A DNA stretch of 46,983 nt from positions 1 through 46,983 of the forward strand of contig JANOSY010000009.1 in assembly GCA_031416075.1 (NCBI GenBank), read 5' to 3'. This DNA is from Candidatus Tenderia sp. (lineage in GTDB: Bacteria > Pseudomonadota > Gammaproteobacteria > Tenderiales > Tenderiaceae). Under the pieces are notes generated by a model. The model saw only the letters and a list, made by a program, of their open reading frames with translations. It was not told where the DNA came from and searched no databases. The translations under genes and the position numbers were made by a program. This document shows positions 12,818-19,647 of this stretch, one piece after another (the first letter of the stretch is position 1; each line of letters begins with the position of its first letter).

Positions 12818-14014
12818 ATGATCATTGAGCCAAAGACCCGTGGGTTTATCTGTACCACCGCTCACCCGGTGGGGTGTGCCGCCAATGTTGCAGAACAGAT
12901 TAACAAGGTAAAGGCTGGGGGCACTATTGTTAATGGTCCCAAAAACGTATTGGTGATCGGTGCCTCTACCGGCTACGGTCTGGCATCACGTATTACCGCA
13001 GCCTTTGGCGCGGGTGCGGCAACCATTGGTGTGTTTTTGGAGAAGCCTGCGACAGATAAAAAATCGGGTTCAGCCGGTTGGTATAACTCTGCCGCTTTTG
13101 AGCAGAGGGCTCACGATGCCGGACTCTATGCCAGGAGTGTTAATGGTGATGCCTTCTCCAATGAGGTGCGCGCCAAGGTCATTGAGATGATAAAGGCGGA
13201 CCTGGGCAAGATCGATCTGGTGGTCTACTCACTTGCTTCTCCCGTACGCAAAATGCCCGAGAGTGGTGAAGTGGTGCGTTCAGTGCTCAAGCCGATTGGT
13301 GATGTCTATCGTGCTATTGCGATTGACACTAACAAAGATCAGATTATTAACGCTGAAATTCCACCTGCCACAGAAGAGGAGATTGCCAATACGGTGACAG
13401 TGATGGGCGGGGAGGATTGGGAGCTGTGGATGGGCGCGCTGTTAGACGCCGGAGTGCTGGCGGAGGGTGTAAAGACCGTTTCGTACAGTTATATTGGCAC
13501 CGAAATTACCTGGCCGATCTACTGGCATGGTGCGCTGGGCAAGGCAAAAGAGGATATGGACCGTGCCGCAGCTGCTATCCGCAAGTCGCTCGCACCGTTA
13601 AACGGCAGCGCCAATGTGGCGGTATTGAAGAGTGTGGTGACACAGGCATCGGCGGCGATACCGGTCATGCCGCTCTACATCTCAATCTGCTTCAAAGTGA
13701 TGAAACAGAAAAATATTCATGAAGGGTGCCTGGAACAGATCGACCGTCTGTTCCGTAGCAGCCTCTACGCGACAGGCAATGCCATGCTGGATGAACAGCA
13801 GCGGATTCGTATGGACGACTGGGAGCTGCGTGATGAGGTGCAAAACAGCGTGAAGCAGCTGTGGCCAACCGTGACCACAGAAAACCTGTTTGAGTTGACC
13901 GACTATCAAGGTTATAAAAATGAGTTTCTGAAACTGTTTGGTTTTGGTTTCAGTGATATCAATTACCAGGCCGATGTGGATACTCTGGTGGCGTTTGAGC
14001 CGGTTACCCTCTGA
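12818..14014 (+). CDS. fabV: Enoyl-ACP reductase / trans-2-enoyl-CoA reductase FabV
   Basis: [40 protein letters not shown] and C-terminal LFGF. Confidence 0.96.
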
Positions 14015-14083
14015 GTTGGTTATGTAGAAGCGTAGGTTCAACCCGTTACTACCACCGATTGAATCTGCGCTGTTTGCGTAACC

Positions 14084-14090
14084 GATTAGG
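14084..14090. repeat. Left target-site duplication GATTAGG
   Basis: An identical 7-mer lies immediately outside the right terminal repeat (19195-19201). Confidence 0.88.
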
Positions 14091-14126
14091 TGTAGTAGTT
14101 CAGACTTGATATGACAGATGGTGTCA
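14091..14126 (+). repeat. Left terminal inverted repeat
   Basis: Pairs with 19159-19194. Confidence 0.9.
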
Positions 14127-14177
14127 GATGTTTTTTGTCACAAATGAGTGAATCCAACCTATTCGAGATAGGACAGG

Positions 14178-14202
14178 TGGCTGTTGTTGACCCGAAGCGG
14201 AC
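14178..14202. other. Putative left hybrid recombination site (TGGCTGTTGT-TGACCC-GAAGCGGAC)
   Basis: GAAGCGGAC (14194-14202) is the exact reverse complement of GTCCGCTTC (19125-19133) at the other end of avs4. Confidence 0.55.
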
Positions 14203-14273
14203 TTTATTCTTCAGCCCAATATAAACCTGTTTTTCGCAGCCAAGGGTAACAAACATACCTAGAGAAAGATTAA

Positions 14274-17200
14274 GTGATTAAGCCAAACTGGGATAATTTT
14301 AAAGCTAAGTTCAACGAAAATCCTCAAATGAATTTTGAGTGGTTATGCTACTCGCTGTTCTGCCAAGAATTCAAAATTCCCGCTGGTATTTTTAGATATA
14401 AAAATCAGTCTGGACTAGAGACCAATCCGATTACTACGGAGGATGAAGTAATCGGTTGGCAAGCAAAATTCTATGACACGAAGTTGTCGGATAATAAGGC
14501 TGACCTGATAGGAATGATTGAAAAAAGCAAGAATGCTTATTCAAGTTTGACCAAGATCATCTTCTACACCAATCAGGAGTGGGGGCAGGGAAAGAAGGTC
14601 AGAGATTCTAAGGCCAAAAAAGAAACTGATCAAAAAGCAAAAGGTAGCGAGAGTAGTAACGATTCCAAAATCAAGAAGGAAGTCGACCAGAAAGCGAAGG
14701 AATCCGGCATTGAAATAGTATGGAGAGGGGCTAGTTTTTTCGAATCGCCGCTTGTAACGGTCGAGAATGAAAATATCGCAAAGCACTTCTTCTGCCCTGA
14801 TAAAAGCATCTTTGACTTACTGGAAGAGAAGCAGAGACACGCGGAGAATGTGTTGCATGAAATTCAAACCGATATGGATTTCAACGACAAAAAGATTGAG
14901 ATAGACAGATATGATCTCTTGGATCGCCTACGTGAAAACTTGGATAAAAAACAGATTCTCATCGTAAGCGGTGTAGGGGGCGTTGGGAAAACAGCGGTTA
15001 TCAAGAAATTTCGTGAAAAAGAGGAAGGCAGTATTCCTTTTTATGTCTTTAAGGCTAGCGAATTCAACATGGATAGCATTAATGACCTGTTTAAGGAATA
15101 TAGCTTAGAGAGTTTTTCAGATGCTCACCGAGAGGAAACACACAAGGTCGTTGTCGTTGATTCCGCTGAAAAACTATTGGACTTGACCAACACCGATCCT
15201 TTCAAGGAATTCCTAACGGTTTTACTAAAAGATAATTGGAAGATCATTTTCACCACTCGAAACAACTATTTGGCAGACTTGATTTATGATTTTATTGATA
15301 TCTATAAGATTAGGCCGGGCAATTTCGGCATAAGCAATTTAGATCAGAAAGAGTTGGCGGCAATAGCACATACCAATGGTTTCAACCTTCCGGAAGACGT
15401 TAAGTTGTTGGAGCTAATCACGAATCCTTTTTATCTGAGCGAATATCTGAGGTTCTATACAAGTGAGACTATCGACTATGTGAACTTCAAAGAGAAGCTG
15501 TGGAGTAGGATAATCGTCAAAACGAACCCAGCTAGGGAACAATGTTTCTTAGCAACCGCTTTTCAGAGGGCCAGTGAGGGCCAATTTTTTGTCATCCCGG
15601 CCTGTAATGCGCAAAATTTAGATACATTAGTCAAGGACGGAGTTCTGGGTTATGAGACAGCCGGCTACTTTATTACGCATGACATTTATGAGGAATGGGC
15701 ATTAGAAAAGAAGATTGCCGTCGATTACATGCGCAAGGCGAACAACAAAGAGTTCTTCGAACTGATCGGTGAGTCGCTACCGATCCGCCGCAGTTTCCGG
15801 ACTTGGGTATCAGAACGTTTGCTGTTGGATGACCAGTCCATAAGGCAATTTAGTGCGGAAATTGTCCAGGGAGATGACATCTCCAAATTTTGGAAAGACG
15901 AGCTATGGATATCTGTCCTGCTTTCCGATCATTCAGGGACATTTTTTGAATTGTTCAAGGGAGATCTGCTTGACAACGATCAGAAGTTATTAAAAAGACT
16001 GACATTCCTGCTGCGACTGGCTTGCATGGAAGTTGACTACGACATCCTCAAACGATTAGGAGTCAGCGACTCGAATCTGCTTTCCATCAAATACGTGCTG
16101 ACCAAGCCAAAGGGAATGGGCTGGCAGAGCGCGATCCGTTTCATCTATGACAATCTAGACGGGATAGGTGTAAAAAATATCCACTTCGTACTGCCGGTGA
16201 TCCATGAATGGAACCAGAAGGTCAAAAAGGGAGAGACGACTCGATTATCTAGCCTGATAGCTCTCAAGTATTATCAATGGACCATTGAAGAGGATGTCTA
16301 TTTGTCTCGTGGAGACGATAAAGAAAATCTTTTGCAAACGATCCTCCATGGGGCTGCCATGATTAAACCTGAATTTGAGGGGGTTTTCGGAGAGGTTTTG
16401 AAAAACAGATGGAACAACCATCGAGCCCCCTATTACGATTTGATGAAAGCAATCCTGACCGACATGGATGCTCAGCCTGTCTGGATAACTCTTCCTGAAT
16501 ATGTCTTACAGGTGGCCGATCTGTTCTGGTATCGTCCGCCTCAAGAAAAAGGAGATCGTTACAGCCGGATGGATGTCGAAGATGAGTTCGGTCTCAGTAA
16601 ATCCCATCACGATTACTTCCCCGAAAGTCCGTATCAGACCCCCATCTATTGGCTACTACAGTCAGAGCTAAAAAAAACCATTGATTTCATTCTAGATTTT
16701 ACGAATAAGACAACAAAATGTTTTGCTCACTCGCGCTTTGCGAAAAATGAAATTGAAGAGGTTGACGTATTTATCGAAGAGGGTAAGTTTGTCAAACAAT
16801 ATATATGCAACCGGCTATGGTGTTCGTATCGAGGAACACAGGTTTCCACCCATCTGCTTTCGTCTATTCACATGGCCTTAGAAAAGTTTTTCCTTGAGCA
16901 CTGGAAAGATGTGGATTCTAAAATATTGGAAAGTTGGCTTCTCTATCTACTGCGTAATTCCAAATCAGCCTCCATTTCAGCGGTGGTGACGAGTATTGTC
17001 ATGGCCTACTCGGAGAAGACGTTCAATGTCGCTAAAGTACTTTTCCAAACAAAAGATTTCTTCGTTTTTGACATGAATAGATTGATTCTCGACCAATCGC
17101 AAAAGAGCTCACTTATCTCATTGAGGGATGGTTTCGGAGGTCCAAGTTACAATAATGATCTCCATGAAGAAGACAGAATAAAGGCTTGTGATGATCCGCA

Positions 17201-19037
17201 CAGAAAGAATTGTCTTGAGCACCTTGCTTTGAGTTACCAGTTTTTCAAAAGCGAAGGTGTAAGTGAGGAAGATGTTAAGGAAAGACAGCAGGCGCTCTGG
17301 GATATCTTTGACACATACTACAGTCAGCTACCGGATGAGGCCCAAGAGACTAAGGCTGACAAGACGTGGAGGTTCTTCTTGGCTCGGATGGACCGGCGGA
17401 AGATGAAGGTTACCACTGAAGAGAAAGAAGGGGGGATCGAGATATCTTTCAATCCTGAAATTGATCCTAAACTCAAGGAGTACAGCGAAGCGGCCCTCAA
17501 GAAGAGTTTTGAGCCGATGAGATACACTTCGCTGAAGTTATGGGCAAGCTATAAAAAGGACAAAGACGAACGCTACAAGCAGTATGGACAGTACGAGAAC
17601 AACCTTCAACTTGTTTTAAAAGAAACCAAGGAAATAATAGACAGGTTTAATGAGGGTGCAGATGAAAGTTTCCGTCTTTTCAATGGTGCTATACCAGCAG
17701 ATGTTTGCTCCATTTTGCTCATAGAGCATTTCAACCAGCTCTCCGAAGAAGAGAGGGACTACTGTAAAGATATCATCTTGGAGTATTCGCAGATTCCCCT
17801 GAAGCCTCATTACCGATACCAGATATCAGACGGAACTACGTCGGCTATTTCAGCCCTGCCAGTAGTGTTCAAGAACTATCCAATGGATAGGGAAATCGTC
17901 AAAGTAATTTTACTCCTAACCCTGTTTGATGATTACCCTGTCGGCATGGGAGGAGGCAGTTACTCCGTCTTTCCCAGCATGGCGATTCATAAATTATGGG
18001 ACGACCATTTTGATGATATGCAGTCTCTGCTAATTGGATATTTGATGTTTAAGCCAAAATACGAAGGGTTGAGGGAAAAACTACGTCAGGAGAGCTACGA
18101 AAAAGGAGTCTATGAGATTGACGAACAAAAGTTCAACGAGAATTTCTTCAATGAATATGAGCAAGGCCTGCAAAAGATCATCGAGAATACAATCTCCATA
18201 AATGATTTAAAGGATATGGAGCATACTGATCTATATATCTTAAACACGGGCTTTCAGTTGATTCCCATGAAGACGTCTAATGCTGTACATAAACAGCTGA
18301 TGTTGTCCATAGTCGCCATTTTTTCAACCAATCTATTATCCCGTGACGGGGAAGATAAAGTTGATTACTCCGTCCGCCATGCCTTCTTGGAGAAATTAGC
18401 TTATTCTGTACTAAATGCTTCCGAGCAGGATATTCCCGATTATTTGAAACCGTTTCTTGATGGTTTCAACGGTTCAGAGTCGATCGCGGATTTGTTCGAG
18501 AAATTTATTTCGGCTGAAGATCGATTGGATACTTATGATAAGTTCTGGCAAGTCTGGAGCTTATTTTTCGAGAAGATGGTTGCCCAGGGCAAGGATGGGG
18601 ATGGGCGCTGGTATACGGGAAAGATCATCAAGAGTTATCTGTTTGCGCAAAGCCCTTGGAAAGAAACAGCCACCGATTGGCACTCATTCAAAGATAGCAA
18701 CAGCCGTTTCTTCGCTGAAGTCGCCAAGAATATAGGTCATTGCCCCTCAACTTTGTATTCTCTGGCCAAATCTTTGAATAACGTAGCCAGTCGGTATCTT
18801 AATCCCGGCATAGCGTGGCTTTCTGGAATGTTGGCTTGTAACAAAGAATTATGGACAGCCAAACTGGAAGCCGACACTATTTATTACCTCGAAAGTCTGG
18901 TCAGGAAGTACATCTACAAAGAGCGTGAAAGAATTCGAAGGACAAAACAGTTGAAAGAAGAGGTCTTAGTAATATTGGAGTTCTTGGTTGAGAAAGGATC
19001 GGTTGTGGGTTATATGTCACGGGAGAATATTCTGTGA
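14274..19037 (+). CDS. avs4: AVAST type 4 anti-phage protein Avs4 (Mrr-like nuclease, STAND ATPase, helical/TPR sensor)
   Basis: 1587 aa. The N-terminus MIKPNWDNFKAKFNENPQ..FEWLCY..FRYKNQSGLET..IGWQAKFY matches E. coli Avs4 as I recall it (E49, Q63-x-K65). Walker A GVGGVGKT, Walker B VVVVDSAE, C-terminus GSVVGYMSRENIL. AT-richer than the flanks. Confidence 0.93.
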   Translation: MIKPNWDNFKAKFNENPQMNFEWLCYSLFCQEFKIPAGIFRYKNQSGLETNPITTEDEVIGWQAKFYDTKLSDNKADLIGMIEKSKNAYSSLTKIIFYTNQEWGQGKKVRDSKAKKETDQKAKGSESSNDSKIKKEVDQKAKESGIEIVWRGASFFESPLVTVENENIAKHFFCPDKSIFDLLEEKQRHAENVLHEIQTDMDFNDKKIEIDRYDLLDRLRENLDKKQILIVSGVGGVGKTAVIKKFREKEEGSIPFYVFKASEFNMDSINDLFKEYSLESFSDAHREETHKVVVVDSAEKLLDLTNTDPFKEFLTVLLKDNWKIIFTTRNNYLADLIYDFIDIYKIRPGNFGISNLDQKELAAIAHTNGFNLPEDVKLLELITNPFYLSEYLRFYTSETIDYVNFKEKLWSRIIVKTNPAREQCFLATAFQRASEGQFFVIPACNAQNLDTLVKDGVLGYETAGYFITHDIYEEWALEKKIAVDYMRKANNKEFFELIGESLPIRRSFRTWVSERLLLDDQSIRQFSAEIVQGDDISKFWKDELWISVLLSDHSGTFFELFKGDLLDNDQKLLKRLTFLLRLACMEVDYDILKRLGVSDSNLLSIKYVLTKPKGMGWQSAIRFIYDNLDGIGVKNIHFVLPVIHEWNQKVKKGETTRLSSLIALKYYQWTIEEDVYLSRGDDKENLLQTILHGAAMIKPEFEGVFGEVLKNRWNNHRAPYYDLMKAILTDMDAQPVWITLPEYVLQVADLFWYRPPQEKGDRYSRMDVEDEFGLSKSHHDYFPESPYQTPIYWLLQSELKKTIDFILDFTNKTTKCFAHSRFAKNEIEEVDVFIEEGKFVKQYICNRLWCSYRGTQVSTHLLSSIHMALEKFFLEHWKDVDSKILESWLLYLLRNSKSASISAVVTSIVMAYSEKTFNVAKVLFQTKDFFVFDMNRLILDQSQKSSLISLRDGFGGPSYNNDLHEEDRIKACDDPHRKNCLEHLALSYQFFKSEGVSEEDVKERQQALWDIFDTYYSQLPDEAQETKADKTWRFFLARMDRRKMKVTTEEKEGGIEISFNPEIDPKLKEYSEAALKKSFEPMRYTSLKLWASYKKDKDERYKQYGQYENNLQLVLKETKEIIDRFNEGADESFRLFNGAIPADVCSILLIEHFNQLSEEERDYCKDIILEYSQIPLKPHYRYQISDGTTSAISALPVVFKNYPMDREIVKVILLLTLFDDYPVGMGGGSYSVFPSMAIHKLWDDHFDDMQSLLIGYLMFKPKYEGLREKLRQESYEKGVYEIDEQKFNENFFNEYEQGLQKIIENTISINDLKDMEHTDLYILNTGFQLIPMKTSNAVHKQLMLSIVAIFSTNLLSRDGEDKVDYSVRHAFLEKLAYSVLNASEQDIPDYLKPFLDGFNGSESIADLFEKFISAEDRLDTYDKFWQVWSLFFEKMVAQGKDGDGRWYTGKIIKSYLFAQSPWKETATDWHSFKDSNSRFFAEVAKNIGHCPSTLYSLAKSLNNVASRYLNPGIAWLSGMLACNKELWTAKLEADTIYYLESLVRKYIYKERERIRRTKQLKEEVLVILEFLVEKGSVVGYMSRENIL

Positions 19038-19124
19038 TGCTAAGAATCAGCAGTATCCCACGAACAAGCACCATCAAAATAAAATGGAGGCAATAGTGGC
19101 ATTAATCTTCAGTTTATGTTGAAT

Positions 19125-19149
19125 GTCCGCTTCTGGCCGTACCCCGCCA
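19125..19149. other. Putative right hybrid recombination site (GTCCGCTTC-TGGCCG-TACCCCGCCA)
   Basis: The inner arm is complementary to 14194-14202. The 6-bp spacer TGGCCG resembles TGACCC, and the outer arm ends GCCA, complementary to TGGC at 14178. Confidence 0.55.
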
Positions 19150-19158
19150 TTCGAGATA

Positions 19159-19194
19159 TGACACAGCCTGTCAGGTCAAGTCTTAACTACTACA
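19159..19194 (-). repeat. Right terminal inverted repeat
   Basis: TGACACAGCCTGTCAGGTCAAGTCTTAACTACTACA, the inverted copy of 14091-14126. Confidence 0.9.
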
Positions 19195-19201
19195 GATTAG
19201 G
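19195..19201. repeat. Right target-site duplication GATTAGG
   Basis: Identical to 14084-14090. Confidence 0.88.
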
Positions 19202-19221
19202 CGAGTTGTGGTTCCGGCTCT

Positions 19222-19647
19222 CTACGCCAGTTTTTTCAGCTTACGCAGATACTCTTTTTCATCCGGCGCGGTACCGCTGCGCTGTGCCTGCCACATCATC
19301 TCCGCCAGACACTCCATCATCTGATGTTCTGCTTTATGCGGATCACCACACTGTTTAACAACCTTGCCATAGACTTCACGAATGCCATCAGGGCGATTAG
19401 TGCCCAGCTGTTCGTGAATGGCGATGTGCATCCCCATGTGCATAAAGGGGTTGGTGGCGCCCATCTCGGGTAGGTATTCACGGCCGAGTGCGGTGTCGCT
19501 ATCGATCAGTACTGACTGGTATTCAGGGTGCTGGCTGATGGTGTCGACGATGATCTTTTCCAGCGGTTCGAGCGGCTGATTATTTTGGGCCTTTTTCCAT
19601 GCATCGATATAGTATTGACGGAGGGAGTTGCGGTCATTGCCAAACAT
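19222..19647 (-). CDS. DUF1841-family protein
   Basis: MF...R..LRQYY.DAW.K, HPEY, NPFMHMGMHIAIHEQL and H.AEH.MMECL.EMMW; commonly found after nth. Confidence 0.88.
   Translation of the reverse strand: MFGNDRNSLRQYYIDAWKKAQNNQPLEPLEKIIVDTISQHPEYQSVLIDSDTALGREYLPEMGATNPFMHMGMHIAIHEQLGTNRPDGIREVYGKVVKQCGDPHKAEHQMMECLAEMMWQAQRSGTAPDEKEYLRKLKKLA

Follow-up and report, generated by a model that had tools for sequence, protein, structure and literature searches.

An avs4 gene bounded by two recombination-type sites within a transposase-less IS481-like element: a probable nested cassette

How does a large anti-phage gene come to stand alone inside a transposable element that has no transposase? The question is raised by contig JANOSY010000009.1 of Candidatus Tenderia sp. 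(assembly GCA_031416075.1), whose 46,983 nucleotides were analysed as a whole and are called the window hereafter; the genome is designated G000. Positions 14091-19194 of the window form a transposase-less element of 5104 bp whose inverted ends are IS481-like and which has a target duplication of 7 bp; the only open reading frame (ORF) of more than 100 aa inside it is avs4 (14274-19037, forward strand); no transposase gene was found inside. The 1587-aa product matched the Avs4 model of PADLOC with an E-value of 0, residues 1-1587 covering positions 1-1570 of the 1570 of the model. The original prediction, made from the sequence alone, described avs4 as a nested cassette with recombinase-type sites inside a transposase-less element with terminal inverted repeats. 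Our analysis bears out this description, and we consider it probable that the locus consists of two nested mobile systems, a cassette with two classes of sites (A and B) inside a shell of the IS481 type.

All the sequence strings of the prediction were found at their coordinates, TGGCTGTTGT-TGACCC-GAAGCGGAC at 14178-14202 on the left and GTCCGCTTC-TGGCCG-TACCCCGCCA at 19125-19149 on the right. The distance of 4946 bp between the spacers and the 158 bp of outer element that remain both follow from the spacer positions. The strings are correct, but they had been taken for two halves of one palindrome, whereas each site is itself a complete dyad of two 11-bp arms around a 6-bp spacer (11-6-11), at 14177-14204 and 19123-19150. 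The left site, of A type and on the reverse strand, is composed of a degenerate outer arm (14177-14187), the spacer TGACCC (14188-14193) and the inner arm GAAGCGGACTT (14194-14204). It fits the consensus of the site family described below; its arm AAGTCCGCTTC with the spacer GGGTCA is a minor variant of class A (5 of 166 sites). The right site, of B type and on the forward strand, is composed of the inner arm ATGTCCGCTTC (19123-19133), the spacer TGGCCG (19134-19139) and the degenerate outer arm TACCCCGCCAT (19140-19150), and it matches exactly the pattern that found at least 120 loci. At both sites it is the arm facing the cargo that agrees with the consensus; the outer arms share 7 and 6 of their 11 positions with the family arm (counted by eye). 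The A and B spacers have four of six bases in common and differ at two. A perfect 9-nt inverted match between zones of about 100 and 60 nt would be expected about 0.02 times by chance (around 6000 position pairs over 4^9), and the 3.49-Mb genome, with both strands counted, contains GAAGCGGAC only 12 times. Stronger evidence than this arithmetic is given by the family consensus, which was obtained independently from other loci, by the allele boundary and by the independent contigs.

The allele boundary was provided by G003, a genome of another species of the same genus. It carries the same element at the same chromosomal site and with the same GATTAGG duplication, in a form of 3.3 kb whose cargo is a 950-aa gene with an N-terminal nuclease region (PADLOC PDC-M68A, 4e-24) and weak matches to STAND NTPases. 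The alternative cargo that had been anticipated for this slot therefore exists. On the left, 134 consecutive columns comprising flank, duplication, inverted repeat, pad and spacer TGACCC are identical between G000 and G003. The identity is unbroken through 14193 and changes at 14194-14195, where GA in G000 faces TT in G003; the following AGCGGAC is common to both, and the similarity then stops. On the right, no similarity was seen before TGTCCGCT; the identity resumes at 19124, with one T/C difference in the inner arm, and the spacer TGGCCG and the pad match. The G003 cassette has only about 45 nt after its stop codon. A further variant is given by a Logan contig of sequencing run X3, which matches the window from 19133/19134 onwards and has different letters before (one contig, 51 loose letters). 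The variable positions lie on the cargo side of both spacers, and the boundary of the cassette thus falls at the spacers, as proposed, in one allele pair and one contig. Logan contigs from other sequencing runs cross both junctions without differences (13935-14451 in X3, 18954-19264 in X2), which shows that the nesting is not an assembly artefact of the metagenome-assembled genome. The uncovered parts in runs X2, X3, X5 and X6 are not to be read as evidence.

The cargo itself has a GC content of 0.38-0.46, against 0.50-0.54 in its flanks. No close homologue of avs4 was detected at E = 1e-50 in 400 sampled genomes of the class; the gene is found at 72% aa identity on plasmids of E. coli and Salmonella. 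The same inner arms had been expected beside close homologues, and the one E. coli plasmid locus inspected, at this 72% identity, was without them. In run X6, which comes from another study, avs4 is present at 88-99% identity and is still joined to ...CCCGAAGCGGAC.

Could the 9-bp match simply belong to the insertion sequence (IS) from which the element derives? It would then be a subterminal repeat, the innermost transposase-binding site, marking the edge of the sequence needed for transposition. Several short motifs of the pad (TGACAG, TGTCAG) are typical of transposase-binding regions, and the outer arm GTGGCTGT was also found in the end of one degraded IS481-like copy. However, neither inner arms nor spacers are present in the degraded IS481-like copies of G003, G000 and G003 have different inner arms in an otherwise identical pad, and the same sites occur at at least 120 loci that have no such inverted ends. 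The site-less copies and the sites at these loci largely refute a subterminal repeat, which we regard as extremely improbable; the sites do not belong to the parent IS.

The evidence from the family came from a scan of one genome per species with the pattern ATGTCCGCTYCTGGCCG, which yielded at least 120 loci, most of them proteobacterial; the family is spread over Alpha-, Beta- and Gammaproteobacteria. The original suggestion of similar motifs beside accessory genes in other proteobacteria was thereby borne out. By arithmetic, about 140 chance matches to the pattern are expected in the whole collection, but the downstream arm is conserved as RNNGCNGMC over the 119 matches listed, which indicates that the family matches are not due to chance. 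Many members are near-perfect 28-nt dyads, and a handful lie inside a conserved coding gene. The arm consensus is ATGTCCGCTTY, beside a spacer of the class TGGCCG or GGGTCR. A search with the arms only returned 166 sites, 105 with TGGCCG/CGGCCA, 50 with GGGTCG/CGACCC or GGGTCA/TGACCC and 11 with other spacers, a count biased towards class B by how the loci had been retrieved. More than one site is present in 64 of 120 loci among the matches listed. Some of these counts include loci of G162 and G328, flagged as unpublished, and no conclusion depends on them. The site family is apparently undescribed: exact site strings of 13-17 nt were in no paper found, the 11-mers occurred only in unrelated primers, and no description was encountered in the partial texts on integron-like arrays, dif modules and cassette exchange, although one may exist in supplements, which lay outside the search. 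The motif may also account for a class of spurious short ORFs that arise from translated repeats of this kind.

In G000, a loose site expression gave 15 matches compared to 26 for its control. The only other good B-type site of this genome is located around position 109074 of contig C17 (arm, TGGCCG and second arm ATAGCCGCC), at the edge of a 2-kb stretch with a GC content of 0.37-0.40 and with other short CCCCA-rich repeats nearby. No partner A site was found within 9 kb of it.

The organisation of the sites is most apparent where they are numerous. A 16-mer pattern produced 68, 43, 16, 8 and 4 matches in five genomes, against 1, 1, 2, 0 and 1 for the reversed control; its background is about one match per genome, similar to that of the reversed control, so that only counts of at least 4 are meaningful. 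In the complete genome G061 (68 matches against 1), about 60 of the matches are concentrated between 2,772,794 and 2,810,770, in a 38-kb array with around 45 junctions between small ORFs whose GC content is below that of the flanking genes. Reading of the map showed that every B spacer in this array is TGGCCG and every A spacer is CGACCC on the same strand. The typical junction consists of a B dyad, a linker of 4-40 nt and an A dyad, and junctions with A only or B only are also present. An A site on the 5' side and a B site on the 3' side of a gene, with the spacers on the same strand, are common to the window, to locus L120 and to many G061 units; B-gene-A and A-gene-A combinations were seen as well. 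One cassette of the array is duplicated within it (97.6% over 460 bp), with an A spacer at one boundary and a B site at the other, and a second duplicate starts at a B site and in one copy ends away from any site. Clusters like that of G061 were also found in G171 and G030.

The cargo of the arrays was evaluated on a random sample of 150 of the 184 ORFs between sites; as the site expression was loose, some of the intervals are chance ones. Most of these ORFs are unannotated. Pfam gave a mixed picture (GNAT in 3, LysR in 2, AAA_21/AAA_15 in 2), and with PADLOC each family was matched by at most 2 members. An enrichment of defence genes at the sites had been proposed and was not seen, 2 of the 150 ORFs matching known defence ATPases; the mixed cargo indicates that the site family is not specific to defence. 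Some 4 kb beyond the final site in the G061 array, at 2,814,572-2,818,022 (L180, 2572-6022), genes with DUF4062 and SIR2-like domains form a pair that looks defence-related.

These arrays recall integrons, and the sites might be divergent attC sites or partners of attC that are handled by integron integrases, the arrays then being attC clusters without integrase. Hairpins that look like ordinary attC sites of the class-1 cassette type terminate 4-20 nt ahead of a B site at L111 (twice), L150, L060 and L089, and one does so in the G061 array. Moreover, the right inner arm of the window overlaps GTTGAAT, which fits the GTTRRRY core, and the array cargo, with its GNAT acetyltransferases and many unknowns, is like that of integrons. 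However, there is no RYYYAAC partner, and the segment 19038-19150 folds on neither strand better than shuffled sequences (z = -0.58 and -0.18). The z-scores of the window sites are between -0.6 and 0.0, and these sites are thus not hairpins. The short tail of the G003 cassette, the double-stranded 11-6-11 architecture unlike that of attC, and the G061 B sites, most of which have no GTT core in front (by eye), point in the same direction. Finally, no PF00589 match was found on the window contig, the six of G000 being on other contigs. We therefore consider an attC origin very improbable, and the original statement that the window sites are not attC, for want of the partner core and of an attC-like fold, holds. 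The attC-like hairpin of G061 lies near joined-coordinate 47040; arrays may be common to the two cassette systems, or one system may be a target of the other.

Integron cassettes and the dif modules of Acinetobacter are the closest known systems, and the A/B family differs from them in its site, in the candidate enzyme and in its nesting in an element resembling a miniature inverted-repeat transposable element (MITE). Integron cassettes are likewise single, mostly promoter-less accessory genes with uniformly oriented recombination-type repeats; there, too, a tyrosine recombinase is implicated, and the arrays are often without the enzyme. They differ in that attC sites are folded hairpins with RYYYAAC/GTTRRRY cores, whereas here the 11-6-11 dyads are double-stranded and their spacers fall into two classes. 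The candidate enzyme here is an apparently cassette-borne protein of 207 aa, and there is no attI-intI platform, the slot being inside a MITE-like element.

What reaction could produce the observed alleles? The avs4 cassette is bounded by two 28-bp sites, each with two 11-bp inverted arms and a 6-bp spacer, of which class A (spacer YGACCC, GGGTCR on the other strand) marks the 5' side of the gene and class B (TGGCCG) the 3' side. The cargo-side arm would travel with the cargo, and the spacer and outer arm would stay with the pad. We infer that a tyrosine recombinase would use the 28-bp sites as its core sites and would swap cassettes by exchanging strands within the spacers. The likeliest route would be an exchange between like sites, A with A and B with B, the donor being an array or circle that carries A-cargo-B, and it would be a natural counterpart of recombinase-mediated cassette exchange. 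Such a like-site exchange would keep the pad and the spacers and replace the arms and the cargo, as observed. The original prediction had assumed a single crossover releasing a circle of 4946 bp. This is doubtful because the spacers belong to two classes with four of six bases in common, and the two differing positions make a single excision of A by B less likely than like-site exchange, although an integrase tolerant of spacer heterology might carry it out. Engineered cassette exchange with heterospecific lox or FRT sites, as far as the partial sources describe it, also relies on a pad with two sites that have the same arms and different spacers, and cassettes could replace one another without excision. 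It differs in being a laboratory design, exchange being presumed here, and the partial literature searched held no natural counterpart.

The best candidate for the enzyme would be a widespread tyrosine recombinase of 207 aa, which would itself be cassette-borne. This protein, with PF00589 as its sole match, is the only non-core gene that recurs among the site loci, and at 8 of about 120 site loci among the matches listed it adjoins a site. The residues R, K, H, R, H and Y, the standard catalytic set, are invariant in 8 of 8 aligned members. No NCBIfam model reaches its cut-off: the integron integrase model scores 22 bits (cut-off 265) and the tyrosine-type DNA invertase model 20 bits (E = 3.7e-4, cut-off 222). 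Among proteins of solved structure, XerD and XerH come closest in sequence (E = 1e-5 to 6e-4), and at least 8000 protein clusters, named only "integrase", match at E = 1e-10 or better. Sixteen full-length copies were compared with random 200-nt windows; a site was present within 200 nt downstream in 8 and upstream in 4 of them, against 17 of 820 random windows. An A-class spacer lies upstream of the recombinase gene and a B-class spacer downstream, with gene-side arms that are alike across loci and outer arms that vary, which suggests that the recombinase gene is a cassette too. Among known enzymes, the FimB/FimE-type invertases are similar in having about 200 aa, a catalytic domain only and no N-terminal core-binding domain; they differ in that the 207-aa protein is far below the family cut-off and in that its sites flank whole arrayed genes rather than a promoter switch.

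The recombinase was also found on plasmids of Acidovorax, Paraburkholderia and Pseudomonas. On the Pseudomonas aeruginosa megaplasmid pPUV-7 (L220, 5377-7650) the gene is adjacent to an IS1182-family transposase, and a 14-nt inverted repeat on its two sides contains the spacer-like CGGCCG/CGGCCA; the recombinase cassette thus travels on large plasmids as well. In L159 (around 1000-1140), a short frame directly upstream of the recombinase has an N-terminus resembling the start of an integron-type integrase, as if an integrase had been interrupted.

The sites could also be real and yet be served by the host XerC/XerD, as are the dif modules of Acinetobacter, the 207-aa protein being a passenger. 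The 11-6-11 geometry, 28 bp with two arms and a 6-bp centre, is that of dif-type sites. Two Xer-sized PF00589 genes are present in G000, and also in G171, G030 and G154, including genomes without the small recombinase. On the other hand, the arms are unlike the proteobacterial dif consensus (compared by eye), and the small recombinase is strongly enriched beside sites. On balance we judge the host Xer enzymes improbable. The pdif sites of Acinetobacter alternate in orientation. According to the available parts of two reports (PMC6449649, PMC13141974), they resemble the present family in that genes are flanked by 28-bp 11-6-11 sites, that the modules are shuffled between replicons and that most have no adjoining dedicated recombinase. 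The A/B family differs in its arm and spacer sequences, its uniform polarity and its small non-Xer recombinase, as well as in its presence in chromosomes of Alpha-, Beta- and Gammaproteobacteria and not on Acinetobacter plasmids only.

Several results weigh against the proposed cassette exchange. The swap of cargo in this pad is documented by one site pair in one genome pair only, and homologous recombination between the conserved ends is another possible origin of the G000/G003 difference. Among the 61 relatives searched, the same pad is present in G003 only, and the empty element that had been predicted was found neither in these 61 relatives nor in two metagenome scans. The scan for the pad core had 0 matches; a looser pattern had 5, namely two elements of G047 again and three chance matches. 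No recombination product was seen: the Logan contigs of X2, X3, X5 and X6 contain no circle joints, which is uninformative either way since contigs drop rare forms. A spacer match of four in six would not be tolerated by an enzyme of the lambda or Cre type in a direct reaction of A with B. As to the enzyme, 8 of the 16 recombinase loci counted above were found through the site pattern and are thus not independent; in a strict test on the 12 copies that came from the protein search, 4 had a downstream and 1 an upstream site, although more of them have variant sites by eye. The recombinase, which the original prediction had placed elsewhere than in this locus, was not found in G000 (tblastn, E = 1e-3) or in G003, and it would consequently have to act in trans, or the exchange would be historical. 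It was not found either in G171 (42 site matches), G030 (52) or G154 (13), the three genomes richest in sites among the 400 sampled, and no small PF00589 gene lies beside their arrays, nor any tyrosine recombinase within about 90 kb of the 38-kb array of G061. The co-occurrence of recombinase and sites expected from the prediction is consequently seen as adjacency at loci and is weak at the level of genomes, 2 of 10 site-rich genomes carrying the gene. The 207-aa protein could be just another passenger cassette.

The same results bear on a second explanation, in which the dyads are intergenic palindromes like the repetitive extragenic palindromic (REP) sequences, with a structural or regulatory role or a role for an HUH enzyme, caught in the ends of the element. 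The change of cargo would then result from RecA-dependent recombination between conserved ends of about 110 and 70 nt. The many near-perfect 28-nt palindromes between genes and the lack of a small recombinase in the three most site-rich genomes and around the G061 array would fit such an origin, and the point at which allele similarity ends is by definition the point at which a conserved end stops. But REPs are species-specific, in contrast to the A/B sites, whose sequence is kept across classes of Proteobacteria. The sites are clustered in a few arrays, as in the single stretch of G061, with a uniform polarity in that array and with two spacer 6-mers that dominate (155 of 166 sites). In addition, the window sites do not fold, no Rfam family was matched in 8 site-rich loci, and the only non-core gene recurrently beside sites is a tyrosine recombinase. 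We therefore hold REP-like palindromes to be an unlikely explanation, and keep site-specific exchange of the cassette as the preferred one.

The outer tier is a non-autonomous derivative of an IS481-family insertion sequence. Its left target-site duplication GATTAGG (14084-14090, no strand assigned) was read directly, as was the right copy of the same 7 bases at 19195-19201. The left terminal inverted repeat (14091-14129, forward strand) begins with TGTAG and is IS481-like; it pairs over 39 nt with the right one (19156-19194), to which it is 82% complementary. The left subterminal pad (14130-14176, forward strand) has repeated TGTCAG/TGACAG-like motifs, is identical in G003 and is partly common with the left-type end of G007. 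The right pad and right terminal inverted repeat together occupy 19151-19194 on the reverse strand, and the same core recurs in right-type ends of G003 and, at two places, of G047. A 20-nt repeat that is direct and not inverted is present in both pads (14108-14127 and 19155-19174, GATATGACA...TGTCAG, 80% identical), and a direct ATTCGAGATA motif is also common to both. The two ends of the element are thus not simple mirror images.

The terminal 26-29 nt recur at 88-93% identity in G003, G012, G001, G014, G034 and G044, often at contig ends, and in G003 they bound the degraded IS481-like copies. An N-terminal fragment from these copies has its matches on plasmids, in features with the annotation IS481 family transposase, and Pfam detected only HTH_29 on the fragments of the parent transposase. 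No intact parent IS with matching ends was found in the five relatives searched (G003, G012, G001, G014 and G047), and no second copy of the ends in G000. Related ends enclose other cargo at other loci, a 4.4-kb element with an LmuB-like ATPase in G047, which also has a solo end, and a 1-kb element with a DUF2971 gene in G007; in G034 one related end is followed by an AbiU2-type HEPN gene and others. The ORF adjoining a solo end in G001 encodes a histidine kinase. The elements of G047 and G007 have no clear target duplication, and IS481 elements make target duplications of variable length. The related ends with other cargo at other loci indicate that the element family has moved. That a transposase moves the loaded unit, as originally suggested, is plausible only, as G000 and G003 share one insertion and no intact parent was found in the five relatives searched. 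Cargo of the defence type is present in 4 of 5 IS481-ended elements, and a site with a canonical spacer lies just inside 7 of 10 related ends (by eye, in G000, G003, G007, G034 and G047); two of the other three ends have a spacer with a one-base variation and one has no site.

The element is inserted between a fabV-type trans-2-enoyl-CoA reductase gene and a DUF1841 gene; farther out lie an endonuclease III gene and a DUF1631 gene. At the fabV-DUF1841 position, G001 (contig C167, L051) has a different, element-free spacer with a GC-rich hairpin, and G004 (contig C147, 1-400, L055) has a contig break beside unrelated low-GC DNA; no exact empty site can therefore be read from these two genomes. 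Accessory DNA may have a hotspot at this position in the genus. In its IS481-related inverted ends, its target duplication, its lack of a transposase and its one passenger gene, the element resembles the mobile insertion cassettes or cargo MITEs, such as the IS231-derived elements, which are transposase-less IS derivatives with passenger genes. It differs from them in that the passenger occupies an internal slot bounded by sites and is not the same in two sister species.

Taken together, these data allow us to suggest, tentatively, that Proteobacteria may possess a second cassette system, independent of integrons, in which cassettes would be exchanged at two heterospecific 28-bp sites by the 207-aa recombinase, and in which pads captured by MITEs of the IS481 type would serve as reloadable slots, here for anti-phage genes. 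If the A and B dyads are recombination sites, Alpha-, Beta- and Gammaproteobacteria would hold a large and unannotated pool of mobile cassettes, of which 38 kb are arrayed in a single genome, with an enzyme and a site distinct from those of integrons and of the Xer-dependent dif modules. A compact recombinase with two naturally heterospecific sites would, in that case, also serve as a tool for cassette exchange, and the site motif is a simple flag by which annotators can mark the boundaries of accessory genes. The window illustrates how a slot of this kind can be nested in a transposable shell, the same chromosomal position then carrying a different anti-phage gene in each of two sister species.

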